Positions 1 to 13,707 of a stretch of DNA of 64,000 nucleotides are shown here, piece after piece. The notes below the pieces were generated by a model. That model searched no databases. It saw only the letters and a list, made by a program, of their open reading frames with translations, and was not told where the DNA came from. This DNA comes from Chitinophagaceae bacterium (GTDB lineage Bacteria; Bacteroidota; Bacteroidia; Chitinophagales; Chitinophagaceae). Location: positions 10,809 through 74,808 of the forward strand of contig JBGAPQ010000018.1 of assembly GCA_044221225.1 (NCBI GenBank). The letters are read 5' to 3'. The position numbers were made by a program, and so were the translations under genes. Numbering within the stretch: position 1 is the first letter of the stretch; each line of letters starts with the position of its first letter.

Positions 1-525
1 TTTTTCTATATCGGGCAGGTTGCGGCTGGCCTTGTGCCAGTCGTAGTTCCTGTTGGGGTTTTCATTTATAAAGGGTATGTAATAATACAAGTGCTGTACC
101 TGCATGTGCTCAGTTGTTTTTTTCCTGCATGTGCTGACCACAAAATCTTTTGTTTCGGCAGGCAGCTGCACCAGGTTCAGGTCAAATTTTCTGCCGTTCC
201 ATGCAAACCGGTTTTTATACTCCTGTATAAACCGGTACAGCAATGGCACCCCTTCCTGCATGGCCCAGATGGCGGCATGGCCGTTGCGCTCCCTGAACTG
301 TATTTTGGGATAGCGTACAATGGTTTTCTTTAGTCCGTCTTCCGTTCTTTCGTTACTGAATATCTCCTGAGCCTGCCCGCCAGGTATGCAACGCAACACG
401 GCTTCACGAAAGTCATGTATCTGTGCCGGCCCTATCTTGAGACTGAACTCTGCCAGCATGGAATTGATGAGGGGGTTGGTTGTTTTTCTTCTGGTGAGTA
501 TTTTTTCGGGGGTGAGTAATTCCAT
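1..525 (-). CDS. cas6: Cas6-family CRISPR RNA endoribonuclease (Cas6b-like), N-terminal 175 codons; the gene runs off the left edge
   Basis: It is missing from the ORF track because it has no in-window stop. The reverse-strand ATG at 525-523 opens MELLTPEKILTRRKTTNPLINSMLAEFSLKIGPAQIHDFREAVLRCIPGGQAQEIFSNERTEDGLKKTIVRYPKIQFRERNGHAAIWAMQEGVPLLYRFIQEYK..., and I checked by hand that it stays open to base 1. The pattern FRxAV ... RYPxIQ[FY][KR] ... G.AAI matches what I recall for Cas6b_N-type Cas6. It lies on the same strand, 176 nt downstream of the cmr operon. Confidence 0.55.
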   Translation of the reverse strand, partial: MELLTPEKILTRRKTTNPLINSMLAEFSLKIGPAQIHDFREAVLRCIPGGQAQEIFSNERTEDGLKKTIVRYPKIQFRERNGHAAIWAMQEGVPLLYRFIQEYKNRFAWNGRKFDLNLVQLPAETKDFVVSTCRKKTTEHMQVQHLYYYIPFINENPNRNYDWHKASRNLPDIEK

Positions 526-701: not shown

Positions 702-1565
702 TCAATCACTATCTACTCTCTGTTTCCATACCGCTGATAATCTGTCGCCATGCTTTTCATACAATGAACCTGGAGTCGGAAATGCATCATAAAGAATACA
801 GTTATACTCAGCAAAATTGATAAACAAATCATCCAGTTTAGGCTTACTCTTTAATCCTTCTAGTTTAGTATCAATTTCTCTTAACAGTTTAGCTTTTTTA
901 ATAAACGAATTGTAATAAGTCAAAACATTAAAAGCAAAAACTGTATTAACCAATAAAACCAGGTATTGAGATACATTTAAACTTTGGGTCGCCTTATCTC
1001 CTGCAGATTCACTTAAAACAATCATCCCTGCAATTACAGATATTAATATAACAACAAACATTGCCACTATTAAATTCTTTATTGCTCTCCCATGTAATTC
1101 CATTAAAGAGGATGTCCAAAATGAATTTTCCTGAATATGTTCAGCCAGCATTTCGTTTTTTTCTTTTCTATCTGTATAATAGTCAGATTCTTCCTTTGGA
1201 TTTTTTCTGGCAAGTTCAATAACTGATTTACTTACTTGCGATATCAAATAAGCCTGCTCCGCCTTATTATTTGCAGTAGGAAATACTTTTCTTATCAAGT
1301 CCAATTTTCTTATTCTTTCACCAATATCATACGCATACCTGAATTTATCCTGGTAGCGGTTGTCAAGTAAAATAGCAAAAACAGAAATAACGAAAACTCC
1401 CCAAATTGAAATACTATTAACAGTCAACCCCGGGAAAAATATTACTCCGAGATTTATAGAAAAAATTATGCCTTTTATCCAAAAACCCGTTTTAAGGAAA
1501 GTATATGCCATCTTATATTGAGCACTCATGAGGGAGGATATGTTTGGTATTTCATTTTTACTCAT
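702..1565 (-). CDS. 4-TM membrane protein (S-4TM/SLATT-like candidate effector), last gene of the cmr operon
   Basis: 287 aa. Two N-terminal hydrophobic helices (GFWIKGIIFSINLGVIFFPGL, ISIWGVFVISVFAILL) are followed by a ~100 aa charged loop ending DYY...QENSFW. Two more helices follow (LIVAMFVVILISVIAGMIVL, YLVLLVNTVFAFNVLTYY), then a ~70 aa tail with PGSLYEK. The start overlaps the HEPN stop by 8 nt. The architecture and motifs match ORF 8455-9366. Confidence 0.6.
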   Translation of the reverse strand: MSKNEIPNISSLMSAQYKMAYTFLKTGFWIKGIIFSINLGVIFFPGLTVNSISIWGVFVISVFAILLDNRYQDKFRYAYDIGERIRKLDLIRKVFPTANNKAEQAYLISQVSKSVIELARKNPKEESDYYTDRKEKNEMLAEHIQENSFWTSSLMELHGRAIKNLIVAMFVVILISVIAGMIVLSESAGDKATQSLNVSQYLVLLVNTVFAFNVLTYYNSFIKKAKLLREIDTKLEGLKSKPKLDDLFINFAEYNCILYDAFPTPGSLYEKHGDRLSAVWKQRVDSD

Positions 1566-1911
1566 TGCAAAATATTTTTTTTATTGTTGAGCAATTCTTG
1601 TCAAAGAAATCATACTCATATTTAGTTACGATAGTATTTGCATCCCATTCATTAATGATCGAGCTTGTATATAAATAGTAAATGCATTTTTGGGCATGAA
1701 TCGTGTCCTGAAGTGAAATAAATTCAAATATTGCCTTTTGCGTACTGTCAAAATCTACCCCTTTTTCTTCAAGAATATGGAATATCAGACTTCTTATACT
1801 TGCCCACTTGATCTGAATTGCTGATAAGTACAATTTCTCTTCAAGAAGTAACATAACCGCTTTTTCAAATTCACTTTGCCTTTGATAATACTCTTTATAT
1901 TTCAACTCCAT
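1558..1911 (-). CDS. HEPN-domain protein (partner of the upstream MNT)
   Basis: I use the internal ATG at 1911 (MELKYKEYYQRQSEFEKAV...). It gives a ~117 aa all-helical protein with an Rx4H motif (IRSLIFH). It overlaps the MNT stop (1895) by 17 nt, as is typical for MNT-HEPN pairs. The longer ORF-track version (to 2046) would overlap half of the MNT gene. Confidence 0.55.
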   Translation of the reverse strand: MELKYKEYYQRQSEFEKAVMLLLEEKLYLSAIQIKWASIRSLIFHILEEKGVDFDSTQKAIFEFISLQDTIHAQKCIYYLYTSSIINEWDANTIVTKYEYDFFDKNCSTIKKIFCNE

Positions 1912-2203
1912 TTTTTTGCACATTTTTGATAAAGGCATTGGGCTTTGCACTAAAATCAGAATTGTAAACAGGAAAAAACAAGAACATAAAATGATATTTT
2001 TGAATATACCCGATAGCCATTTCACTTGTTTTGGTGACGAAGTCAAACTTATTTACTCCATTAGTAATTACTACTACAAAGTCCAACTCTGTGTTTAAGA
2101 AAGTTTCTTTCCGAAAATTCCCTATTAAGAATAATCTTTCAACGCTGATTACTTCACTTAGCCCCTTTTTGATTTCTCTTGCCAGTTCTATAGTGTTTTT
2201 CAT
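1895..2203 (-). CDS. Minimal nucleotidyltransferase (MNT, Pol-beta superfamily)
   Basis: 102 aa. LFLIGNFRKETFLNTELDFVVVI fits the hG[GS]x9-13[DE]h[DE] Pol-beta NTase signature, with GS replaced by GN and the acidic pair as ELD. It starts 1 nt after the cmr6 stop. Confidence 0.55.
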   Translation of the reverse strand: MKNTIELAREIKKGLSEVISVERLFLIGNFRKETFLNTELDFVVVITNGVNKFDFVTKTSEMAIGYIQKYHFMFLFFPVYNSDFSAKPNAFIKNVQKNGVEI

Positions 2204-2204
2204 G

Positions 2205-3119
2205 CTATGCTTTTGTCATTGTGGTCAATAACTGCCCATAACCCACATTGGTTTTAGCACCTGTCCCCGTATATTCAAGTATACTTTTAAACAATTCCAT
2301 AATAGCCTGTCTTCTTAATCCCAGACCTGGAATATCCTGCAACAAAAACTGAAAGCTGAATTTTACTTTAGGCCGTATTTTCAGAAAATTTAGCGGTACC
2401 GGGTTCTTCAAAGGATCAGGATGCGGTGCTATGCTGTCCGTTTCAAATATCATATTTTCTTTGGCGCCGGATATATAAGCATTATAAAAAATAAACCGGT
2501 CATAAATACTTAAGTATTCATTATCTCCGGCCTCTTTGGTTTTGTCCAGGTCTACCCCTTCAAATATTGCCAGTTCAAGCCGGTGCACTTTTTTTATTTT
2601 CTCTGTTTCTTCAAGTCCTTTCCACCCGGTCAGTTCAGCAATAAATTCAACCTTGCTTTTCTGAATGTCAGTAATATCTTTTTCCTTTGGTAACTCATTT
2701 AATTTCCGGCCCAGTTGGGGGAACTCACTCCGCAATACACCCTTTACGCTGCTGCCGGGTATGCAGGGAAGCCCTGTAGTATGGTCAAAATAAAATCCCA
2801 TTTTAAATTCGGCTTCATTATCGCTCTGGTGTGTGTAACCGGTGCCGATAAGCAGTCCGGGGTAGGTAGTGGTAAATTCTATTTCTGTCAGCCAAATACT
2901 TTCCTCTTTATTCAACCGCAGACATTGATAATCCCCGGCCTGCAGTGCAAAGTTTTGCAGCTTCCTGTTGGCATCTTCAATAACTGGCTTATTACTTTTT
3001 TTGAGTTCTTTAAAATCATCTTTGTCTATCGGTTTTTCCGGGCTGAACACAACCCTGTTGTTTCCTGTCCCGGTTTCATGCTGGTAATATCCTTTATAAA
3101 AAAACTCCCTTGCATTCAT
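2205..3119 (-). CDS. cmr6: Type III-B RAMP protein Cmr6
   Basis: 304 aa. It has the RAMP motif GLPCIPGSSVKGVLRSEF and a C-terminal glycine-rich loop GTGAKTNVGYGQL. It sits directly after cmr5. Confidence 0.8.
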   Translation of the reverse strand: MNAREFFYKGYYQHETGTGNNRVVFSPEKPIDKDDFKELKKSNKPVIEDANRKLQNFALQAGDYQCLRLNKEESIWLTEIEFTTTYPGLLIGTGYTHQSDNEAEFKMGFYFDHTTGLPCIPGSSVKGVLRSEFPQLGRKLNELPKEKDITDIQKSKVEFIAELTGWKGLEETEKIKKVHRLELAIFEGVDLDKTKEAGDNEYLSIYDRFIFYNAYISGAKENMIFETDSIAPHPDPLKNPVPLNFLKIRPKVKFSFQFLLQDIPGLGLRRQAIMELFKSILEYTGTGAKTNVGYGQLLTTMTKA

Positions 3120-3120
3120 A

Positions 3121-3519
3121 TCAGTTAGTTTTTACCTGTTTAAAATTCCGTAGGCTGAGTTTTATGGCCACCACTGCGTCCATAATTAGTGGTTTCAGCG
3201 CTGCTTTTTCCTGCGGGCTCTTAGCCAATAAAAAATTCAACAGCCCATTTTTTTCATCAGCAATTGGCAAACCCTCTTTGCTGCGCAGTACGGCGCTGAC
3301 TATACCCAGTATTTCATACCGGTGTGGCTTATCACTATCCCTGTCTTTATGTATATCCGTATAGAAAGACACGGCAGGCAGCAGGCTGCTGGCGATGATG
3401 GCAGGCCCTAATGATGCAGCATACCCGTCATACTCTTCTGCTACCTTATTACCCCTGCCAATGCCTTCCCGGATAACCCTCAGTGCATCCGGTAAATAGT
3501 TTTCAATCCTTGTCTTCAT
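3121..3519 (-). CDS. cmr5: Type III-B small subunit Cmr5
   Basis: 132 aa, helical. YDGYAASLGPAIIASSLLPAVSFY resembles the Cmr5 core motif. It lies between cmr4 and cmr6. Confidence 0.7.
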   Translation of the reverse strand: MKTRIENYLPDALRVIREGIGRGNKVAEEYDGYAASLGPAIIASSLLPAVSFYTDIHKDRDSDKPHRYEILGIVSAVLRSKEGLPIADEKNGLLNFLLAKSPQEKAALKPLIMDAVVAIKLSLRNFKQVKTN

Positions 3520-4196
3520 CAGTGTTTATTTAATTTGGTGAATTTGCACAGGCCATACCCTACAGTAGCATTGGCCCCAACCTGGATTAAGGATGTGGTG
3601 ATTTCTTTATTGAAATCATCAAATAAGCTGTTGTCTTTTTCTTCATAAATAATACCGGTAATAAAAACTGTTTTGTGTGGCACCACTCTTTCATACCAAA
3701 GGTTCTGGCTGATGCCGTTTTCAAGATGATTGCGGGCAATTACCGGCAGATCGTCAACCGCTTCATTAAAAGCGGCTGAGTTGTTTACAGAATCTTTCAC
3801 TCTCCAGTCTGTGTTCATTTCGTATCCAAGAAGCTTGTACTTCTCAGCATACAGTCTGCTGATAGTATTACCACAATGTACCAGTTTGTAATAAGGGCTT
3901 TCTGTTTGCGGCGATGGTAAAGCTGCCAGGTCTGCAGCAAGAAAACTGAAACTGCCGGCCTGTTGTACTTTCTGTTTATCCTTGTCTTCACTGCAACCAA
4001 AAACTTTATCCACATGTTGCCACTTTCGGTGCTCCAGGAATTCCCTCAGCGCACCCTTCAGGCTGCTCGCATAAATAGTGGGCAGGCCTGAAGCGGCATC
4101 CCTTTGTATTTCCTTATCTACAATTTCATAATTGCTGTCGCCACTGCCTGCATGCAGGTTGGTAATGGCTTCTATGGTGTAAATAGCTGTTGTCAT
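3519..4196 (-). CDS. cmr4: Type III-B backbone RAMP / target-RNA cleaving subunit Cmr4
   Basis: 225 aa. ITNLHAGSGDSNYEIVDKEIQRDAASGLPTIYASSLKGALRE and the C-terminal GANATVGYG are classical Cmr4/Csm3-type RAMP motifs, including the acidic residue in the VDKEIQRD segment. Confidence 0.85.
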   Translation of the reverse strand: MTTAIYTIEAITNLHAGSGDSNYEIVDKEIQRDAASGLPTIYASSLKGALREFLEHRKWQHVDKVFGCSEDKDKQKVQQAGSFSFLAADLAALPSPQTESPYYKLVHCGNTISRLYAEKYKLLGYEMNTDWRVKDSVNNSAAFNEAVDDLPVIARNHLENGISQNLWYERVVPHKTVFITGIIYEEKDNSLFDDFNKEITTSLIQVGANATVGYGLCKFTKLNKH

Positions 4197-4205
4197 ATTC
4201 TTACA

Positions 4206-5282
4206 TTAAAAGTTCCTGATAAACTGGTTATATCCTATCGAAGTAAAACCCTGATGGCCTAGCAACCCCACAACCCTATCTTTTTTTGCTCCGTCAGCAA
4301 ATAACAAAGAGCCCTGCTTTAGCAGGTAAGTGGTTTCAACTGGCTTGTATAATTGCTTTTCATCACCTGCCAGGCTGCCAAGTCTGGAAAAATTGGTAAC
4401 TGTTTTGGGTGTCCTTATATTACGGAAAGCTTTTGCCCGCAAAACAGCATAGCTGATGTGTTCCTCCATTTCAGCCATGCTACTTACATAAGCATCTGTA
4501 AGCAGCAGCACACAGGGAGCAGATTGTGGCAGGTATGCGCTGAACAATGTTGTTAATTTATCCATCATACTGCTCCATATAGTGAAGCCATTTTCAGTAT
4601 AAGAAATGGAAAACATTTTTTTCTCACCGCCAAACGGAAGTAACCCTGGCAGCTTATTTATATCGACACTTCCATCTACAACTGCCTGGAAAGCTATTGC
4701 ACAGTTCTTAAGCCGGTAAAATTGCTGTTTGTAAAAGGCCCCTTCGTCTGTTTCCCTGTTATTGGTTTTGCCCTTATCAATACCTATATGGGTTTCGTGG
4801 CAAAATAAAGTACTGTCATCAACCAGTTCGCCGCTGACAATATTCAACCACCTTGGTGCAAATTCATTTTTGGGGTTATAATTTATTGCCGAAAACTTTC
4901 GGGCTGACAGCCGGTTATTATAAATAGCTGATTCGCCAGATACAGCTAATGACATTGTTACCATCCGGTTATTTTCTTCCTGCAGCAATGGAGGGCATTT
5001 ATATAACACCTCATTTTTGCTGTTGACGAGATAAAGCGGACTGATAGAATGAATGAAACCAAAATGCTGATCCTCTATCCCGGGGTTAAAACTTTCTCCG
5101 ATTTCATAACCTGCACAAAAGAAGGCATGGCGCAGCAGGCCCAGCAGTCCTGTCTGCTGCGGCAATGGATTGCTTTTCACAGAAAAGTTTCTAATCCCTT
5201 TGGCTCCGTATTCAAAGGTTTCATTACTGCCAAAAAAATAGTAATCAAGCGGTCTTATGGTTATTTGTATCGTTTTACTCAT
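4206..5282 (-). CDS. cmr3: Type III-B Cmr3
   Basis: 358 aa. The N-terminus IRPLDYYFFGSNETFE...NPLPQQTGLLGLLRHAFF and the internal LPFGGEKKMF fit the Cmr3 pattern. It lies between cas10 and cmr4. Confidence 0.8.
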   Translation of the reverse strand: MSKTIQITIRPLDYYFFGSNETFEYGAKGIRNFSVKSNPLPQQTGLLGLLRHAFFCAGYEIGESFNPGIEDQHFGFIHSISPLYLVNSKNEVLYKCPPLLQEENNRMVTMSLAVSGESAIYNNRLSARKFSAINYNPKNEFAPRWLNIVSGELVDDSTLFCHETHIGIDKGKTNNRETDEGAFYKQQFYRLKNCAIAFQAVVDGSVDINKLPGLLPFGGEKKMFSISYTENGFTIWSSMMDKLTTLFSAYLPQSAPCVLLLTDAYVSSMAEMEEHISYAVLRAKAFRNIRTPKTVTNFSRLGSLAGDEKQLYKPVETTYLLKQGSLLFADGAKKDRVVGLLGHQGFTSIGYNQFIRNF

Positions 5283-6903
5283 GGGCTGGCTGGTTTAAAA
5301 ACTGAAACATACGCAGGCAGGCAAACAACGTTTTAAATGTTTTGTCTGCATCGCCGGTTTCTTTATCCAACAATTCGGTAAACTCCCTGACCATCCGGAG
5401 ATAATTTTCATTATCAGTGAGCCTGGATATTTCCTTATGTATTTTCTCGTTCATGTGATTCTCAAAGAAGTTTCCCAGGCTGTTATTACGTATGGCATCC
5501 TTATACAACACCTGAATTTCCCTGAACTTATGTATAGTTGATGCCAGGAAGTTTATGTCCTTGAAGTTGTCGCCATTGTCAAGCATGTTCGTAATAAAAT
5601 ACTCCATGGCAGGGCCTTTGGTCAGTTCTGACCCAAACAGTTGTCCACTATGTTTCTGTACTTCAAATCCAAGCCTGTTTTTAAATCCTGAGTTCTTAAT
5701 ACGCATTAGAGCATCATGAGCTGCATTCAATGCATCAGCCATCGGGTACTTATAATAGCTGATGCCAATTCCGTAGCTGAGTGATACAGGGTCTTTAATC
5801 AGGCCGCTAAGCTTGTTCAGTTCAGCATCCGGAAACTCATTATCTATAGCGCTGAGTAATGCAAAAAAGTGTTTGCCTGTTTGCCTGCTGGTTTCAACAT
5901 TTCCATTAGCCAGCGGCAGAGCAAACAGCAAATCATCACCCCCAATAAAAATGGGAATTCCCCCATAATCAACAATCAATTTTGCCGCTTTACCGAAAAA
6001 TCGGGCAAGATGGGAAGAGTAGCTTTTAATTTTTCCCTCCTCATTGCCGAGTGCCCTCAGGCATTTTCCTACATTATCGCCATCTGCATAGACAAACGCA
6101 ATGTATTTGTGCCTTAACCTGAAATCTTTATAATTATCTTTTAAAGCCTGCATCAATTGGCTCTCCAGTTCCTGCTCCTCTTTTACTCTTTCATAGCGGG
6201 GTTTATTGCTCTGTATATAAGTGCACATTTTTTGACTGGCGGGTTCAGTAACCAGGTCAAAGTAATTCTGCTTGCCGGCTTTATATTTTAAATCCCTTGT
6301 ACAAAGTTCAATGATAGAAGGCAGTCGCTTATAGCCTTTTGCTCCGCATGTATAATGAATAAAAATGTCTCCCCCGCCTAATTGAAGGTTTTTATGCCCA
6401 TCATCGTATAATGCCTGTATATTATCGTCTAATGCAGGTACAAAGTCTACATCATTAGATGATACTTTCTCATATAGTTCTGCAGTATCGAGTAGTCTAT
6501 TTAACTCCAGAATAGCATTGGGGCCATTTTCATCAGCGTTAACTGATACAGCGCTGAAACTGGCATATTTATCAATCTGCTCCTTACTTATTCCTGTTAT
6601 TCTATACAATTCACTGCAAGCCTTCTCAAATACATTATTCATTTGCTCTGTCTTCATAGTACTTGTTTTCCAAAAAGCCCGGTCAGGATATATACCTGCA
6701 CCATGAATATGCAAACTTCCGTCTGCAGGCACAGGCGACAGCAATGTTCCGATATTTTGCTTTTCGGCCTCCGTTAATATCTCCCGCATCAGTATCGAAA
6801 AGAAATAGCTGGAAGACCAAAGCTCCCTCGTACTCCTGGCTTGCAGGATAGTATTATAAATGGGGCCTATGGTTATGGCGAGGTAGTTATTTAGCATAAT
6901 CAA
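5275..6903 (-). CDS. cas10: Cas10/Cmr2, short form without the HD domain, cyclase palm intact
   Basis: 542 aa. It begins directly with YLAITIGPIYNTILQARSTRELWSSSYFFSILM, the segment that normally follows the HD domain. It has HGAGIYPDR, a first palm FVYADGDNVGKCL and the catalytic GGDDLLFALP. No H-D dyad lies upstream of these motifs. Confidence 0.85.
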   Translation of the reverse strand: MIMLNNYLAITIGPIYNTILQARSTRELWSSSYFFSILMREILTEAEKQNIGTLLSPVPADGSLHIHGAGIYPDRAFWKTSTMKTEQMNNVFEKACSELYRITGISKEQIDKYASFSAVSVNADENGPNAILELNRLLDTAELYEKVSSNDVDFVPALDDNIQALYDDGHKNLQLGGGDIFIHYTCGAKGYKRLPSIIELCTRDLKYKAGKQNYFDLVTEPASQKMCTYIQSNKPRYERVKEEQELESQLMQALKDNYKDFRLRHKYIAFVYADGDNVGKCLRALGNEEGKIKSYSSHLARFFGKAAKLIVDYGGIPIFIGGDDLLFALPLANGNVETSRQTGKHFFALLSAIDNEFPDAELNKLSGLIKDPVSLSYGIGISYYKYPMADALNAAHDALMRIKNSGFKNRLGFEVQKHSGQLFGSELTKGPAMEYFITNMLDNGDNFKDINFLASTIHKFREIQVLYKDAIRNNSLGNFFENHMNEKIHKEISRLTDNENYLRMVREFTELLDKETGDADKTFKTLFACLRMFQFLNQPAHE

Positions 6904-8434
6904 ATTGTGAAAAGTAATCTTTTAAAAATGTAATAAAATCCCCCTTTCGTTGACTGGTCAAATTTGGGGTTCTAAACAATTCTCTTCCCGGCCTTGTTTC
7001 CGAATTTCTTAATTGTATTTTGTCACCAATTTGTTGCCAGCCATTTCTTGTTTTTTCCCTTACAGTAAAAAAAATCGAAAACGGTTTGTTCATAATAACA
7101 TCAAAATCATTCTTTATGAAGACATAAAGCTGCCACTCAATTAATTTATAAACAACAGGAGATTGAAATCTATCTATATCATCGTTATGAAAAGTCACAA
7201 CAAACTTTCTGTTCGAGTCTGTAGTTCCAAATTCATACTGCTCCGGCAAACCAAGAATAGCTCTGATAAAAAAATATTGACTATCAGAAAAACTATCATC
7301 CCAACTATTGTCACCCTCAAGCTCGTTAACTGATGGCGGTCTGTCTGCTTTCAGGCTTAAGCCTTGTCTCTCAGAATTAGTAAGATTATTAATTAATTTT
7401 TTTATTAGCCGTTTTTCCCAAACTTCGTTTCTGTCAATAAAGTGCAGAAACAACTTAGACTTAATATATTTCTTAGGGTTACCTGGGTTTACCCCACTCT
7501 TTAAGATTCTATTACTAAGCTCAATCTTATCAAGTATTTCAATGTAACTGGTGTATGGTAATACGTCATTTAAAAAATAATTTTTGCGAAGTTGAAATGC
7601 TTCATCAATTAATGAAGCAAAAACAGAGAACTCGCTTTTTAGTGCAAGTTTTTTTCTTTCTGCAAGAGACAAAAATTCTCCCTTTACTTTTTTAAGAATT
7701 TCGTCGTTTCTCCAAAGCTCATTAATCGGCTCATCCCCGATGATGTTTTCAGGAATAGAGTAAGAAAATTTCCTTTTTGCGTTGTATTTCTTTATTGTAT
7801 CCCGATTTACATTTCTATCAAACTTTATTGAGAAAAACTCTGAAGAATTCAGATTATAAAGATTTTCATCAAGATTTTCTCCAATATCAAGTTGGTCAAT
7901 AAGTTGATGTGTTCGCAAAAAAAGACTATGAACTTGTTGCTCAGCCGGAAGGCTAACATTAATATCATCTATTTCTGAAATAGTAAAGGAACCATAGCCT
8001 TTGGAAACTCTTTTTCCAAAGTTGGTAACAATAAAAAAATCAGTTATATGTTTTCGAATCTCCCGATTCAGATCCGCATTAAATGCTTTTATCATTCCAG
8101 ATAATCCATCAAATAACATTAAACTTTCTTCGGCCCCAACTACTGACTTTTTAAAGCTGATGCCTTTGACGGTATTAAATGAAAGTTTATAGTCAAATGC
8201 ATTATATCCCTTTTCGTATTTTGCCTTCAGAGTTTCTTCCGTTTGTTTAGTATATCCAATAAAGTAAGTTTTCGCTTTCTCAAAATCTCTTTGAAATACC
8301 ATATCAAGAAGGTATCTATCCAATTTTGGCTTTACCTCAGTAGCTCTTAAAGTAGCTCCGTCCTGGTTTGGCTGAAAGTGAATAAGAGGTGTGTGTTGTC
8401 TTAATTTAAATATCAGCGTATGCGGCAAACTCAT
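6887..8434 (-). CDS. cmr1: Type III-B Cmr1 (double-RAMP) with a large internal insertion
   Basis: 515 aa. The N-terminal RAMP is LIFKLRQHTPLIHFQPNQDGATLRATEVKPKLDRYL, the G-loop is FGKRVSKGYGSFTI, and the second RAMP has AILGLPEQYEF and DRFQSPVVYKLIE. It is the first cmr gene, upstream of cas10. Confidence 0.7.
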   Translation of the reverse strand: MSLPHTLIFKLRQHTPLIHFQPNQDGATLRATEVKPKLDRYLLDMVFQRDFEKAKTYFIGYTKQTEETLKAKYEKGYNAFDYKLSFNTVKGISFKKSVVGAEESLMLFDGLSGMIKAFNADLNREIRKHITDFFIVTNFGKRVSKGYGSFTISEIDDINVSLPAEQQVHSLFLRTHQLIDQLDIGENLDENLYNLNSSEFFSIKFDRNVNRDTIKKYNAKRKFSYSIPENIIGDEPINELWRNDEILKKVKGEFLSLAERKKLALKSEFSVFASLIDEAFQLRKNYFLNDVLPYTSYIEILDKIELSNRILKSGVNPGNPKKYIKSKLFLHFIDRNEVWEKRLIKKLINNLTNSERQGLSLKADRPPSVNELEGDNSWDDSFSDSQYFFIRAILGLPEQYEFGTTDSNRKFVVTFHNDDIDRFQSPVVYKLIEWQLYVFIKNDFDVIMNKPFSIFFTVREKTRNGWQQIGDKIQLRNSETRPGRELFRTPNLTSQRKGDFITFLKDYFSQFDYAK

Positions 8435-8454
8435 AATTCTTTCAGGTTTAATGT

Positions 8455-9366
8455 CTATTCTTCTATGGCTTTCATTCTGCTAATAAGCTCTTTGAGGATC
8501 ATTTTCATTTCCGTTTCATCCTTTTCTCTGAATCTTTTGTAAACCCAATCCGGCACCAGGGAACCATTCATCCTGTTCTCAAAAATTTTATCTTGAATGG
8601 TTCTGGAAATATGGGCAAGCTGAGCTTTTTCAAGTGTTTTCTTTTCCAGTTCTTCAAAAGTGCTTTGAAAACAATCATTTAACTGTTTTAGCTTCTTACT
8701 TACATTAAGATGATCTGTTAATTCCTTTTGTAAAAAAATAAAAAAAGGCATCAGCACTCCCAGCATCAAAACAGCTTCTGTCAATTTGATATCGTTTACT
8801 AAACCGGCAATCAGTAATATGACCGGTATCGATATCAGCACAACTATTATAAGAACCTTGTACCTTTTCCTAAGTTTTAGGTCCCACCAGCTATTGGAAC
8901 GTTGACAAATTAATGCTGCGATGTATTGGTCTTTTACATTGTTAATTTCTTCACCATACCAGTCTTTCAGATCATCAGTACTTCCCTGCCCATTTTGGTA
9001 TTGATCATGATTTTTAAGAATATCTTCCAGTGTAAACATGTCAGATATACTCATCAATGGCCTGGATAATTTCAAAACAGTACAATCGAATTCTTCCTGG
9101 ATAGATGCAGCTTTCTCTTTAAGTTTGGCAATAAATGGGGTAAATCCTATGACTTCAACCACCGTAAATACAATACCATATGCTGCTCCATAAATACCCC
9201 ATTGCGGATTAAACAAAGTCACTACAGCAATAACAACCGGAATTAAAACACTAAAGAGAAACTGAATAGCATAAAACATCTTTGCTGAACTATAGAGCTC
9301 TCTTTGGGCAGCCAGTAATTTAATATTGTGAGGCTCATTTTGCAGTTCGGCTATATTATTCTTCAT
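8455..9366 (-). CDS. 4-TM membrane protein (S-4TM/SLATT-like candidate effector), first gene of the cmr operon
   Basis: 303 aa. The helices are MFYAIQFLFSVLIPVVIAVVTLF and GIYGAAYGIVFTVVEVIGFTPFIA, then a soluble loop ending DWY...QRSNSWW, then VLIIVVLISIPVILLIAGLV and AVLMLGVLMPFFIFLQ. A ~95 aa helical tail carries PDWVYKR. Its stop lies 20 nt upstream of the cmr1 start. Confidence 0.6.
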   Translation of the reverse strand: MKNNIAELQNEPHNIKLLAAQRELYSSAKMFYAIQFLFSVLIPVVIAVVTLFNPQWGIYGAAYGIVFTVVEVIGFTPFIAKLKEKAASIQEEFDCTVLKLSRPLMSISDMFTLEDILKNHDQYQNGQGSTDDLKDWYGEEINNVKDQYIAALICQRSNSWWDLKLRKRYKVLIIVVLISIPVILLIAGLVNDIKLTEAVLMLGVLMPFFIFLQKELTDHLNVSKKLKQLNDCFQSTFEELEKKTLEKAQLAHISRTIQDKIFENRMNGSLVPDWVYKRFREKDETEMKMILKELISRMKAIEE

Positions 9367-9810
9367 TTATAATAATTAAAGTATTATAAAAAGATTCTTT
9401 GAAAAAAGTAAATATTCTACCCTTAGGTAAGGGCCAATATACCTATGCTACAATTAAACAGAGAAATAATCAGGAGTTATTCAGCAGATTGGATAATTAC
9501 AGATTTATCTAAATTAAGCCAAGGGAATATTATCCGCAAAAAAATTCTGATATTTTATTCCGGTACACCCCGGATACCCTTCATGCAACCTTATAAACAA
9601 AAGTTCGCATTATATTTTGAATGCATCCTGGAAAATAACGGCCTTTCGCCAATGGCAGCAGAGGAAACCCAAGGCCCGAATTACCCCTGCTCACAAAGTG
9701 AGATTATCAAATCATATTACAGGGTTGTATTGTAAGAGTAAAACCTTAGGCTGCCTTACCGAAAGTTTTTTTTATGGATTATTCTCACCAGAATACCTGC
9801 TTTAACCCGC

Positions 9811-10900: not shown

Positions 10901-11482
10901 TCAGCTGATTTTCTCCACCTGCATATAATTCAGTTCAACAGGAGTAGAACGGCCGAATATCTTAACAGTTACTTTCAATTTCTTTTTCTCATCATTCACC
11001 TCTTCAATCACTCCATTAAAGTCATTAAACGGTCCTTCTATTATTTTGATAGTTTCACCTACAATAAATGGTTCACTCATACTTACTCCGCCAGCCTCGG
11101 CCATTTCGTCCATTTTACCCAGCATCTTATTCACTTCTGCCTTACGGAGTGCAATGGGATTTTCTTTACCAAGGAAATGAATAACATTAGTCGTATTCTT
11201 GATAACATCTCTCAGATCGTCGCTTAACTTTCCTTCAGCAATCTCAATCATTACATAGCCGGGATAGTAATTCCTTTCTCTCATTACTTTTTTTCCACTG
11301 GCTACTTTATACACTTTCTCTACCGGAAGAAATACCTGCTTAACAATCTCACTCCAGCCACCACGGGAAATTTCTTTATCAAGATATTCCTTAACTTTTT
11401 TTTCTTTACCGCTTACAACACGCAACACATACCATTTGGTCTCCTGCTGCTGTACGTTTTCAGTATTTGTAGTTACTTCCAT
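10901..11482 (-). CDS. nusG: Transcription termination/antitermination factor NusG
   Basis: 193 aa. It has WYVLRVVSGKEKKV (NGN domain) and a KOW-like C-terminus GETIKIIEGPFNDFNGVIEEV. It lies directly after secE. Confidence 0.95.
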   Translation of the reverse strand: MEVTTNTENVQQQETKWYVLRVVSGKEKKVKEYLDKEISRGGWSEIVKQVFLPVEKVYKVASGKKVMRERNYYPGYVMIEIAEGKLSDDLRDVIKNTTNVIHFLGKENPIALRKAEVNKMLGKMDEMAEAGGVSMSEPFIVGETIKIIEGPFNDFNGVIEEVNDEKKKLKVTVKIFGRSTPVELNYMQVEKIS

Positions 11483-11676
11483 TAGAAAAGTTGTTTGTAA
11501 ATAAACTTCAGCCCGTTACCTGTTACAAAATCCATTCCGAGCACTATAAAAGTGATTACGATAGTAGCAACGAGTACTATCATTGTTGACTGTTGCAACT
11601 GCAGCCAGGTTGGCCAGCTCACTTTCTCTGTCAGTTCTTTGTAACTCTCTCTGAAGTATGTAGTAATCTTATTCAT
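11482..11676 (-). CDS. secE: Preprotein translocase subunit SecE
   Basis: 64 aa with a single C-terminal TM helix. YFRESYKELTEKVSWPTW is the typical SecE N-terminus. Its end overlaps the nusG start by 1 nt. Confidence 0.9.
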   Translation of the reverse strand: MNKITTYFRESYKELTEKVSWPTWLQLQQSTMIVLVATIVITFIVLGMDFVTGNGLKFIYKQLF

Positions 11677-11713
11677 ACTAGTTTATTTGATGTTCAATGT
11701 TCGAGGTTTGATG

Positions 11714-11738
11714 TTAAAATCCGGGCCCCGGATTTTAA
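11714..11738 (-). terminator. Palindromic hairpin between tRNA-Trp and secE (possible attenuator or processing site)
   Basis: ttaaaatccggg/ccccggattttaa is a near-perfect inverted repeat flanked by T/A runs on both strands. Confidence 0.3.
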
Positions 11739-11761
11739 CCCTTATACTTCAAACTATTTAG

Positions 11762-11832
11762 CACGGGTACTAGGATTCGAACCCAGACTGAAGGTTTTGG
11801 AGACCTCTGTACTACCGTTATACTATACCCGT
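11762..11832 (-). tRNA. tRNA-Trp (CCA)
   Basis: Hand-folded. The acceptor is ACGGGTA/TACCCGT. The anticodon arm is GAGGT-CTCCAAA-ACCTT (anticodon CCA). The T-loop is GGTTCGAATCC. The position between tuf and secE is the canonical one. Confidence 0.9.
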
Positions 11833-11935
11833 AAGAAGGCCTCCCCAAGCCCCTCCGATGGAGGGGTTTCCGAAGACCCAAAAAAAGAACTTTTTTCTAA
11901 TAACAAAGTACCCAGGCTCTTCGCCCAAGTACTTT

Positions 11936-11943
11936 GCAAATTT
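11936..11943 (-). promoter_or_regulatory. Bacteroidota sigma-A -7 box (TAAATTTG) upstream of tRNA-Trp/secE/nusG
   Basis: This is an exact TAnnTTTG match on the minus strand, about 100 nt upstream of tRNA-Trp. Confidence 0.35.
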
Positions 11944-12009
11944 ATTAAGACTCTCCGCAAAGTCCCCCTGCAGGGAGACCCGCCTGCCGGCAGGCAGGTT
12001 TAGAGGGCT

Positions 12010-13197
12010 TTATTTTAAAATCTCAGTAACCTGTCCGGCGCCTACTGTACGGCCGCCTTCACGAATCGCAAACTTCAAACCTTTCTCCATCGCAATCGGC
12101 TGGATCAGTTTTACAGTCAATGAAGTGTTGTCACCAGGCATAACCATTTCAGTACCAGCATTCAGCTCCACTTCTCCGGTAACGTCTGTAGTACGGAAAT
12201 AGAACTGAGGACGATATTTCTGGAAGAATGGAGTATGACGTCCACCTTCTTCTTTGCTCAGTACGTAAACTTCGGCTTTGAATTCAGTATGCGGAGTGAT
12301 AGAACCTGGCTTAACGATAACCATACCACGACGGATTTGGTTCTTGTCGATACCACGAAGCAGCAAACCAGCATTATCCCCGGCTTCACCTTCGTCAAGC
12401 AACTTGCGGAACATTTCCACACCAGTTACTGTAGAAGTAAGCGGTTCAGCAATCAAACCAACTATTTCAACCGGCTCATTCACTTTAATACGACCTCTTT
12501 CGATACGACCGGTAGCCACTGTACCACGACCTGTGATGGAGAATACATCTTCCACAGACATCAGGAACGGCTGATCAACCGGGCGGGGAGGCAGCGGAAT
12601 GTAAGAATCTACAGCAGACATGAGTTCTTCAACCTGCTTAACAGCTTCAGGATCGCCATCAAGAGCTTTTACTGCAGAACCTTTAATGATTGGAGTAGTA
12701 GCGCCATCAAAACCGTAGAAAGTCAGCAGGTCACGGATTTCCATTTCCACTAACTCTAACAGTTCAGGATCGTCAACCAGATCCACTTTGTTCATAAATA
12801 CAACCATTTTAGGTACACCTACCTGGCGGGCCAGAAGGATGTGTTCCTTGGTTTGAGGCATAGGACCATCAGTGGCAGCCACAACCAGAATAGCGCCGTC
12901 CATCTGGGCAGCACCAGTAATCATGTTTTTAACATAGTCTGCGTGACCGGGACAGTCAACGTGAGCATAGTGACGATTTTCAGTCTGATACTCAACGTGT
13001 GCTGTATTGATGGTGATACCCCTTTCTTTTTCTTCGGGAGCAGCATCAATTTCATCATATTTCTTTGCCTCAGCCATTCCTTTTTTAGAAAGTATGGTTG
13101 TGATTGCAGCAGTTAAAGTGGTTTTTCCATGGTCAATGTGGCCGATGGTACCAACGTTAACATGGGGCTTGTCCCTTTTGAAGGTCTCTTTTGCCAT
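12010..13197 (-). CDS. tuf: Translation elongation factor Tu
   Basis: 395 aa. It contains [23 protein letters not shown] and NKVDLVDD, and is full-length EF-Tu. Confidence 0.99.
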
Positions 13198-13327
13198 TGT
13201 TATCGGTTTTAAAGTTGTGTTTTACAATTTTTGTTTTTTATCCGTAAGCCAAAGGTATTACTACCACAGGCTTTTTTCCTACTCTGTTTTCACTATCTCT
13301 TTCTCTCAGTCCTTTTGTTTAAAGATG

Positions 13328-13399
<72 letters not shown>

Positions 13400-13442
13400 T
13401 GGTCTTACCAGATCCGCCTTCCGCTGCGCCATGGCGGTTTTG

Positions 13443-13515
13443 AGCGGGAGACCGGGCTCGAACCGGCCACCTGAAGCTTGGAAGGCTACCGCTCTACCAA
13501 ATGAGCTACTCCCGC
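13443..13515 (-). tRNA. tRNA-Gly (TCC)
   Basis: Hand-folded. The acceptor is GCGGGAG/CTCCCGC. The anticodon loop is CTTCCAA. The T-loop is GGTTCGAGCCC. Confidence 0.85.
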
Positions 13516-13545
13516 TGATAATTTTATTTCAAATAAAGAACTATG

Positions 13546-13628
13546 TGGGCAAGGATGGATTCGAACCACCGAACTCCGAAGAGGACAGATTTACAGTCTG
13601 TTGCCGTTGGCCACTTGGCTACTTGCCC
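13546..13628 (-). tRNA. tRNA-Tyr (GTA), long variable arm
   Basis: Hand-folded. The acceptor is GGGCAAG/CTTGCCC. The anticodon loop is CTGTAAA. It has a long variable arm and the T-loop GGTTCGAATCC. Confidence 0.85.
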
Positions 13629-13634
13629 GCCCGG

Positions 13635-13707
13635 AGCCACCTGCCAGAATCGAACTGGCGACCTACTGATTACAAATCAGTTGCTCTACCAGCTGAGCTA
13701 AGGTGGC
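13635..13707 (-). tRNA. tRNA-Thr (TGT)
   Basis: Hand-folded. The acceptor is GCCACCT/AGGTGGC. The anticodon arm is CTGAT-TTTGTAA-ATCAG. The T-loop is AGTTCGATTCT. Confidence 0.9.

Follow-up and report, generated by a model that had tools for sequence, protein, structure and literature searches.

Several membrane proteins are already known as effectors of type III CRISPR systems, namely CorA, Cam1 and Csx23, with Cam2 and Cam3 as candidates, and the sharing of effectors between type III systems and cyclic oligonucleotide-based antiphage signalling systems (CBASS) is known for NucC and TIR-SAVED (PMC11229360). Here we analyse a 64,000-nucleotide (nt) stretch of DNA from a Chitinophagaceae bacterium (contig JBGAPQ010000018.1, positions 10,809 to 74,808; hereafter the window), in which a type III-B (Cmr) operon carries, directly upstream of cmr1, a four-transmembrane (4-TM) protein of the S_4TM family, and we consider it likely that this protein is functionally coupled to the Cmr module. 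The kind of system is already known, whilst the pairing of a Cas10 of the type that makes S-adenosylmethionine-AMP (SAM-AMP) with an S_4TM or SLATT protein is the part that the searchable literature did not contain.

The nearest described system is the Cmr/CorA/NrN system of Bacteroides fragilis (Chi et al., 2023; PMC10600005; structures 9LQ5-9LQ8, of which 9LQ8 is the III-B complex, PMC13294483). In that work D70 and E151 were absolutely conserved in CorA-associated Cas10 proteins, and the double mutation D70N/E151R abolished SAM-AMP synthesis and enhanced the formation of pppApA (Chi et al., 2023; PMC10600005). The two systems have in common an HD-less Cmr2 (Cas10) of ~540-600 amino acids (aa) with the D70, E151 and GGDD positions, the gene order cmr1 to cmr6, an effector gene directly 5' of cmr1, a Bacteroidota host and a membrane protein as the sole candidate effector. 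They differ in that the window is without CorA, and no DEDD exonuclease, NrN or lyase was found in it, the search having had no dedicated NrN or lyase models. The slot of the effector is instead held by the unrelated S_4TM protein, there is an additional cassette of three genes (hereafter the trio, encoding a minimal nucleotidyltransferase (MNT)-like protein, a HEPN-like protein and a second 4-TM protein) together with reverse transcriptase (RT)-cas1-cas2 genes, and the product of the window Cas10 is a prediction.

An S_4TM-type effector of CBASS was reportedly predicted by Burroughs et al. in 2015. Type I CBASS with a 4TM effector (EcCdnD12-4TM) resemble the window locus in that the membrane protein matches PF18159 over its full length, is 35-41% identical to CD-NTase-linked members and combines four transmembrane (TM) segments with a helical cytosolic part. 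They differ in that the generator of the signal in the window is a Cas10 within an RNA-guided complex and not a cGAS/DncV-like nucleotidyltransferase (CD-NTase), in that an Arg and a Trp of the CBASS-linked proteins are substituted, and in the likely ligand. Cam1, Csx23, Cam2 and Cam3 (PMC11229360) share with our proposal the concept of an ancillary TM protein that is gated by a Cas10-made nucleotide and depolarises the membrane; those proteins use CARF, a tetrameric domain binding cyclic tetra-adenylate (cA4) or REC-like sensors, whilst S_4TM is without these and matches them neither in sequence nor in fold. The trio recalls the HEPN/MNT (HepT/MntA) type VII toxin-antitoxin (TA) systems, in which a small MNT gene likewise overlaps a gene for a small helical protein and the MNT profile of the trio matches a solved MNT (9xbd_E). 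Unlike in HepT/MntA, the partner in the trio is without a conserved R-x4-6-H RNase motif and without a HEPN model match, the MNT-like proteins mostly carry G-N or G-K, and the partner always precedes, or is fused to, a 4-TM or 2-TM membrane protein.

A full-text search of the literature, with partial coverage of subscription journals, linked neither S_4TM, 4TM nor SLATT to type III CRISPR or Cas10 and returned no SAM-AMP effector other than CorA. An earlier reading of the window from its letters alone (the sequence-only reading) had regarded the gene combination as uncharacterised, and the pairing of a SAM-AMP-type Cas10 with S_4TM was indeed absent from the searchable literature.

An S_4TM protein in the position of CorA

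The two genes on which the argument turns are:

8455-9366, minus strand: S_4TM protein (4TM-B), 303 aa; Pfam PF18159, E 7e-74; PADLOC CBASS '4TM' effector, 2e-81
5275-6903, minus strand: cas10/cmr2, HD-less, 540-542 aa; Pfam Cmr2_N and Cas10-Cmr2_palm2; TIGR02577 above cut-off

The match of 4TM-B to PF18159 covers profile positions 1-290 of 291 with 249 bits against a cut-off of 26.9, so that the protein is a genuine member of this SMODS-associated family; no SMODS or CD-NTase match occurs in the locus (Pfam, PADLOC), and the neighbour of S_4TM is cmr1, 20 nt 5' of which it ends. Four TM segments were seen in the hydropathy profile, and an AlphaFold2 (AF2) model built from a ten-sequence alignment is all-helical, with a predicted local distance difference test (pLDDT) score of 91.3 and a predicted template modelling (pTM) score of 0.86, and shows the four TM segments extended by long helices that form a cytosolic bundle. 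No solved relative was returned by a Foldseek comparison of this model with the PDB (best E 0.66, TM < 0.26) or by a search of the PDB with the sequence profile, and the gating mechanism that we propose is therefore drawn from context. On its family and position, 4TM-B is a candidate membrane effector gated by the Cas10 signal.

A 22-sequence Cas10 alignment was scanned against one genome per GTDB species, which gave 308 relatives; for the best 80 of these (L020-L099) open reading frames (ORFs) were called, Cmr genes labelled by phmmer and the remaining neighbours clustered. Sixteen of the 80 loci are truncated 5' of cmr1, which leaves 64 informative ones. CorA lies immediately upstream of cmr1 in 57 of the 64, and its neighbour cluster (Pfam CorA for the representatives) includes a small Rv2179c/RNase_T-type DEDD exonuclease partner as well as CorA-exonuclease fusions. 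S_4TM alone fills the slot in 4/64 (L020, L021, L052, L066), an MNT-like protein with a HEPN-like-TM fusion and a SLATT protein in 2/64 (L063, L075), and an insertion sequence (IS) element with a 2-TM ORF in the one remaining locus (L074). A membrane protein thus accompanies Cmr in every informative locus of the clade, S_4TM being the second commonest. Both CorA and S_4TM are present in L026, in tandem 5' of cmr1, and in L033, with CorA upstream and S_4TM downstream, a co-occurrence which implies one shared signal.

The arrangement of S_4TM in the same orientation 6-44 nt 5' of cmr1 is found in six loci (the window, L020, L021, L026, L052 and L100), the Cas10 proteins of which are 28-76% identical to that of the window, and no remnant of a CD-NTase was found in any of the six. 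A seventh such contig (L120) has a Cas10 nearly identical to that of L020. The neighbourhood survey that the sequence-only reading had called for therefore places S_4TM, across six loci with diverged Cas10 proteins, in the slot that CorA holds in 57/64 relatives. In L100 the S_4TM protein is 46% identical to that of the window and the Cas10 just 28%, the latter still with YADR, LELQ and GGDD; these identities indicate that S_4TM and this class of Cas10 recombine yet remain paired.

SLATT is another effector family associated with CBASS and SMODS. Two-TM proteins matching SLATT_4 (3.6e-14) or SLATT_6 (3e-6) are encoded directly 5' of cmr1 in the CorA-less loci L063 (5791-6327) and L075 (8234-8728). 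In addition, unassigned ORFs of ~160-167 aa with 1-2 predicted TM segments lie between corA (or an IS) and cmr1 at L024 8078-8581, L033 8214-8708 and L074 4597-5076, and could represent a further small membrane protein that CorA-type systems conserve.

The Cas10 protein and its probable signal

The window Cas10 has no HD match in Pfam, carries GGDD at residues 319-322 and aligns at its N-terminus from residue 1 of B. fragilis Cmr2, all of which agrees with the HD-less, GGDD-bearing protein described from the letters. Among solved structures, B. fragilis Cmr2 (9lq5_B) is by far the nearest, with 1.7e-39 by phmmer and 1.4e-98 by the family profile, against just 1e-7 for P. furiosus Cmr2, which follows it. 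In the profile alignment to 9lq5_B, D72 (YPDR), E140 (AELYE) and GGDD 319-322 correspond to B. fragilis D70, E151 and D328/D329, and the residue numbers of the alignment agree with those published. These D, E and GGDD equivalents are kept in the window and in 80/80 Cas10 proteins fetched from the clade. On sequence grounds, the window Cas10 belongs to the HD-less, CorA-associated clade of SAM-AMP-synthase type, and since the pair of residues by which the acceptor site is switched from ATP to SAM is conserved, the most probable signal is SAM-AMP; we lean modestly towards SAM-AMP or a close derivative as the product. That a nucleotide-derived signal would be the output of this Cas10 had been proposed before, and GGDD is kept; what had been missed are the D70 and E151 equivalents, which make SAM-AMP likelier than a cyclic oligoadenylate (cOA).

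A DEDD partner was absent from the window, and no Pfam match to a SAM-AMP degrader was found among the locus ORFs. Homologues of CorA and of the DEDD partner were absent across the whole 64-kb window. CARF, SAVED, Csx1/Csm6, NucC, Lon and CorA had no match among the ten locus ORFs (Pfam, NCBIfam, PADLOC), and CARF and SAVED none up to 4.6 kb past the window edge, the scan of window ORFs having reached to 14 kb; the earlier statement that the locus has no CARF/SAVED sensor stands within this range.

Contexts and residue signature of S_4TM proteins

A word-index search with S_4TM gave few relatives. Of these, a 49%-identical protein from a Chitinophagaceae metagenome-assembled genome (L009/L010) lies in an S_4TM-cmr1-cas10-cmr3-6-cas6b locus beside tuf-secE-nusG, without the trio, whilst relatives of 41% and 35% identity come from two-gene SMODS+S_4TM operons. 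Among 80 loci from a metagenome scan with the S_4TM alignment, a CD-NTase is adjacent in 67, Cmr in two (L100, L120), and 11 have short or other surroundings; S_4TM also lies directly beside SMODS CD-NTases in L013, L014, L180 and L182. The family is accordingly found mostly outside type III neighbourhoods, which the sequence-only reading had held would speak against its proposal; the other setting is CBASS, not housekeeping, and as CBASS is itself a nucleotide-signalling defence, this context supports an effector role. A third context for the S_4TM family is the type I restriction-modification (R-M) operon of L016 (3325-7974), in which a homologue of 30% identity is encoded between hsdS and hsdR together with a 146-aa ORF and without a CD-NTase.

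A rough neighbour-joining tree of 93 S_4TM proteins places the Cmr-linked ones in two groups, one (window, L020, L021, L100) nested beside CBASS-linked proteins and the other (L026, L033, L052, L066) on a deep branch. In the alignment of the same 93 sequences, the residue three before the invariant C-Q-R is R/K in 68/68 CD-NTase-linked proteins and A, T, S, T, T, I, Q and Q in the eight Cmr-linked ones, and the Trp after TM4, likewise W in all 68, is F, I, L or V in the Cmr-linked proteins. Polar motifs common to both sets are QR..Y..AK, AASIQEEFD, WY, CQR.N.WD..R, R..QD...R and R. Loss of the Arg and Trp is associated with the Cmr context, as an association and not as a diagnostic feature.

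The downstream trio

The genes between cmr6 and cas6b are:

1895-2203, minus strand: MNT-like nucleotidyltransferase, 102 aa; family profile A5 against PDB 9xbd_E, 2.3e-11; PADLOC PDC-S09, 1.9e-8
1558-1911, minus strand: HEPN-like small helical protein, 117 aa; no Pfam or PDB match
702-1565, minus strand: 4TM-A, 287 aa; PADLOC 4TM model PDLC00724, 2.7e-9, C-terminal half

Profile comparison with the solved MNT 9xbd_E supports the MNT label given to the first protein from its letters; the family has the motifs IG[NKS] and [DE]-x-D, but its GS motif reads G-N or G-K in most members, and the first carboxylate of the window protein is E. The HEPN label of the second protein did not hold up: its R40 is invariant, position 45 is H, Y, Y, Q, S or F in six members, so that the histidine of R40-x4-H45 is not conserved, and neither Pfam nor the PDB gives a HEPN match, for which reasons we do not endorse a HEPN identity and use HEPN-like as a name only. 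One homologue matches PaREP1 weakly (0.012), and an AF2 single-sequence model of the window protein was unusable (pLDDT 51.5). The ORF can be extended to 2046, the start given by gene callers being 1911 (117 aa). In L063 and in the cluster representatives P0152, P0156, P0157, P0158 and P0167 a HEPN-like domain forms the N-terminal part of a fusion with a 4TM-A-like protein, and in L075 it is joined to a SLATT-like region with two TM segments; these fusions indicate that the HEPN-like protein is probably a cytosolic partner or regulatory domain of 4TM-A.

For 4TM-A, a link to the S_4TM superfamily was borne out, albeit a distant one: besides the PADLOC match, hhalign against the S_4TM alignment gave E 2.9e-4 with a probability of 40%, and an exhaustive search with a hidden Markov model (HMM) assembled a family of 266 cluster representatives, some of which are also matched by the S_4TM HMM. 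Distant members (P0160, P0171, P0150, P0159, P0194) are single chains with a SMODS CD-NTase-like domain, an aminoglycoside-adenylyltransferase (ANT)-like nucleotidyltransferase (NTase) domain or a TCAD9 domain. By these sequence relationships, 4TM-A is a divergent, putative effector of the S_4TM superfamily, whose usual companion is a Pol-beta-type NTase of its own.

Close homologues of 4TM-A (56-73% identity) lie in three-gene cassettes encoding proteins of ~104, 117-121 and 282-293 aa. The stand-alone cassettes L011, L012, L018 and L019 have unrelated, non-CRISPR surroundings, and the MNT-like and HEPN-like genes of the window have homologues in them as the first two genes. The trio is absent from the nearest Cmr relatives (L020, L120, L021), in which cmr6 abuts cas6b, and we take this absence to mean that it was inserted in the window lineage. 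The idea that the two 4-TM proteins form a conserved bracket around the Cmr genes is not borne out by these findings, and of the proposal that both are Cmr effectors the part concerning 4TM-B is retained, as an S_4TM protein in the CorA slot, whilst 4TM-A belongs to a separate cassette. In L063 and L075 the slot of CorA is taken by trio-like modules, and a 4TM-A-like gene lies beside CorA in L088; this recurrence keeps open a functional link of the trio to Cas10 signalling.

The remaining operon and its flanks

The other Cmr genes and the adjoining cas6b are:

6887-8434, minus strand: cmr1, 515 aa; PADLOC Cmr1 PDLC01492, 6.9e-60; phmmer match to cmr1 of related loci
4206-5282, minus strand: cmr3, 358 aa; Pfam Cas_Cmr3, 3.9e-18; PADLOC, 5e-22
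3519-4196, minus strand: cmr4, 225 aa, backbone subunit of the repeat-associated mysterious protein (RAMP) type; TIGR02580, 3.5e-41, above cut-off; PADLOC Cmr4, 1e-42
3121-3519, minus strand: cmr5, 132 aa; Pfam Cas_Cmr5, 5.5e-6; PADLOC Cmr5, 6.8e-19
2205-3119, minus strand: cmr6, 304 aa; TIGR01898, 7.9e-30, above cut-off
1-525, minus strand: cas6b, 3' end cut by the window edge, 175/257 codons; Cas6b_C in the identical contigs L001/L007

All six subunits of a type III-B system were matched (Pfam, NCBIfam, PADLOC). The minus-strand run from 9366 to 702 consists of ten tightly packed ORFs, none more than 20 nt from the next and none overlapping it by more than 17 nt, in the order S_4TM (4TM-B), cmr1, cas10, cmr3, cmr4, cmr5, cmr6, MNT-like, HEPN-like and 4TM-A; our ORF listing reproduces all ten ORFs and nine junctions reported before, as well as the Cas6-like gene 176 nt 3' of 4TM-A, which is cas6b with its start at 525. 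For cas10, the start chosen by gene callers is 6897 (540 aa), whilst the ORF itself begins at 6903. A sigma-70 scan gave 26 sites against 31.5 expected from shuffled sequence; its model is unsuited to Bacteroidota and the result is neutral on whether there is a single operon.

The Cmr1 protein of the window, which has no Pfam match, is 515 aa long against 417 aa in its closest relatives (L020, L021, L120), with an insertion of ~100 aa. In L021 (11604-12684) cmr3 is split into ORFs of 134 and 213 aa, whilst it is intact (359 aa) in L010 (4527-5606); L021 and L010, both Chitinophagaceae assemblies, encode the same S_4TM protein (P0002), and the split reflects either a fault of the assembly or a frameshift of recent date.

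Beyond the left edge, two contigs with identical proteins (L001, L007) continue after cas6b with RT, cas1, cas2 and a higBA-like pair, with Pfam matches to Cas6b_C, RVT_1, Cas_Cas1, CRISPR_Cas2 and HigB_toxin. The adaptation module (L007 10389-13679) consists of a stand-alone RT (347 aa, RVT_1), cas1 and cas2, followed by the HigB-toxin/118-aa pair, and RT-linked spacer acquisition is likely from these genes. Contigs of this type end shortly after the HigB-toxin pair, possibly at a CRISPR array. The relatives L020 and L021 have arrays, with 36-nt repeats ending in GACTGAAAC.

On the other flank are genes for a PKD/CBM96 lipoprotein, nusG, secE, tRNAs and tuf. The Cmr locus adjoins this tRNA(Thr-Tyr-Gly-Thr)-tuf-tRNA(Trp)-secE-nusG cluster at 10901-13707 of the window and likewise at 7421-9537 of L009, which points to an integration site that is shared or was used repeatedly. 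The 444-nt gap 5' of S_4TM contains a 96-aa ORF on the plus strand (9445-9735), called in all identical contigs and without a family match, that could be a regulator or spurious.

Proposed mechanism and alternative explanations

The explanation that we favour on balance is that a Cas10 signal, probably SAM-AMP, gates S_4TM and that the trio is an inserted module. A sub-lineage would have replaced the CorA(+DEDD/NrN) module 5' of cmr1 by an S_4TM borrowed from two-gene CBASS systems. By family resemblance, the Cmr complex loaded with CRISPR RNA (crRNA) would bind a complementary transcript, upon which the activated palm domains of Cas10 would make a nucleotide signal, to judge from the conserved residues most probably SAM-AMP. 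The signal may then bind S_4TM at its cytosolic helical bundle, which is conserved and rich in Arg, Gln and Asp, and S_4TM would perturb the membrane, leading to growth arrest or abortive infection; this last step is proposed by analogy to CorA, Cam1, Csx23 and the CdnD-4TM CBASS operons, of which CdnD12-4TM operons show strong CD-NTase-dependent defence and toxicity (bioRxiv 10.1101/2023.05.21.541620). The trio, made up of a nucleotidyltransferase, its helical partner and a pore-like protein, would be a cassette that moves on its own and that entered the interval from cmr6 to cas6b in the window lineage only; it is probably self-sufficient, as it has its own NTase, and, presumably co-transcribed with cmr, it could act as a second arm or a modulator.

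More tentatively, SAM-AMP or a close derivative could have in S_4TM a second receptor, unrelated to CorA and belonging to a CBASS pore family re-tuned from CD-NTase products, with SLATT proteins and the trio as further outputs of the same Cas10 clade. Given the two Cmr-linked groups in the tree, such re-tuning may have happened at least once and possibly twice, and the loss of the Arg and Trp may mark the change of ligand.

Several observations weigh against the favoured explanation. Tandem-repeat searches found no CRISPR array in the window and none in the first 1.2 kb after cas2 in the extending contig L007, and with no array beside the locus the window copy is at most a putatively active one. 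The binding of a ligand by S_4TM is a prediction for Cmr-linked and CBASS members alike. The Arg/Trp signature failed as a predictor of CBASS context, because P0007 and P0010 lack it and adjoin weak or faint SMODS genes. The CorA systems studied need NrN or a lyase for immunity (PMC12255297), whilst the S_4TM-only loci contain no recognisable SAM-AMP-degrading enzyme of the DEDD, NrN or lyase kind, again as judged without dedicated NrN or lyase models. The window S_4TM clade lies beside CBASS-linked proteins at about 41% identity, a closeness more easily explained by a cyclic oligonucleotide ligand, and the recurrence of trio-like modules in L063 and L075 means that the trio may be more than a passenger.

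The position of the window clade as sister to CD-NTase-linked S_4TMs, at about 35-41% identity, and the missing degrading enzymes would both be expected if S_4TM were the Cmr effector and had kept its ancestral ligand class, the signal being a cOA or another CBASS-like nucleotide made by Cas10 despite its D/E residues, just as NucC and TIR-SAVED, common to CBASS and type III CRISPR, keep cyclic ligands (PMC11229360). We regard this as unlikely: the D70/E151 equivalents are invariant in the window and across the 80 clade members, it is the double mutant D70N/E151R that shifts the B. fragilis Cas10 towards ATP, and CorA and S_4TM co-occur in L026 and L033, a single Cas10 site being unlikely, as Hoikkala et al. 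argue, to yield two very different products. The Arg and Trp of CD-NTase-linked S_4TMs are, moreover, lost in every Cmr-linked one. This last point also bears on whether there is any coupling at all. S_4TM is overwhelmingly a CBASS protein (67/80 loci), defence genes commonly cluster, and in L016 a homologue is part of a type I R-M operon with no CD-NTase, so that S_4TM might be the orphan of a decayed CBASS operon and, like the trio, merely an island neighbour of Cmr. That this should be so is improbable, since the Cmr-linked proteins are substituted alike at otherwise invariant positions, S_4TM keeps its orientation within 44 nt of cmr1 in six loci with Cas10 identities down to 28%, none of these has a CD-NTase remnant, and the slot is exactly the one otherwise held by CorA.

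The place of the trio can be read in two ways. An autonomous insertion, and not an integral arm, is what we think the better of the two, if by no means assured: close homologues examined outside the window lineage are all stand-alone trios in unrelated neighbourhoods, the closest Cmr relatives are without it, the HEPN-like protein has no conserved catalytic His, and the autonomy of the trio is favoured by its having its own NTase and by relatives fused to SMODS or ANT-like NTases, which suggests self-sufficiency. It is rather unlikely, by comparison, that the trio is integral to signalling, either as a second SAM-AMP-controlled pore with the HEPN-like domain as sensor or as an off-switch or regulator in place of DEDD, NrN or a lyase, as with the TA module of the type III-D2 SAM-AMP system. 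Such a role is consistent with the tight packing of the trio (a 1-nt gap to cmr6 and overlaps of 17 and 8 nt), with the CorA-less loci L063 and L075, which carry MNT plus a HEPN-like-4TM or HEPN-like-2TM fusion plus SLATT directly 5' of cmr1, with the 4TM-A-like gene beside CorA in L088, and with the requirement of III-D2 for a VapBC-like TA module that its authors propose to degrade the messenger (PMC13294483).

Significance

How SAM-AMP is sensed and how broadly it is used are matters on which the window locus bears. Gating of S_4TM by a SAM-AMP-type signal would make this 303-aa, confidently modelled protein a CorA-independent and tractable receptor for the study of SAM-AMP recognition and would give the first ligand lead for the S_4TM family, a common CBASS effector. 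It would show effector modules moving between CBASS and non-cOA type III signalling, and SAM-AMP signalling would here do without a dedicated degrading enzyme, a point relevant to the question of whether such systems reset or kill. The trio is in its own right a candidate new stand-alone defence cassette. If the proposal is true, SAM-AMP signalling would have a repertoire of CBASS-derived membrane effectors, and the trio would be a previously undescribed defence system of NTase, sensor and pore.

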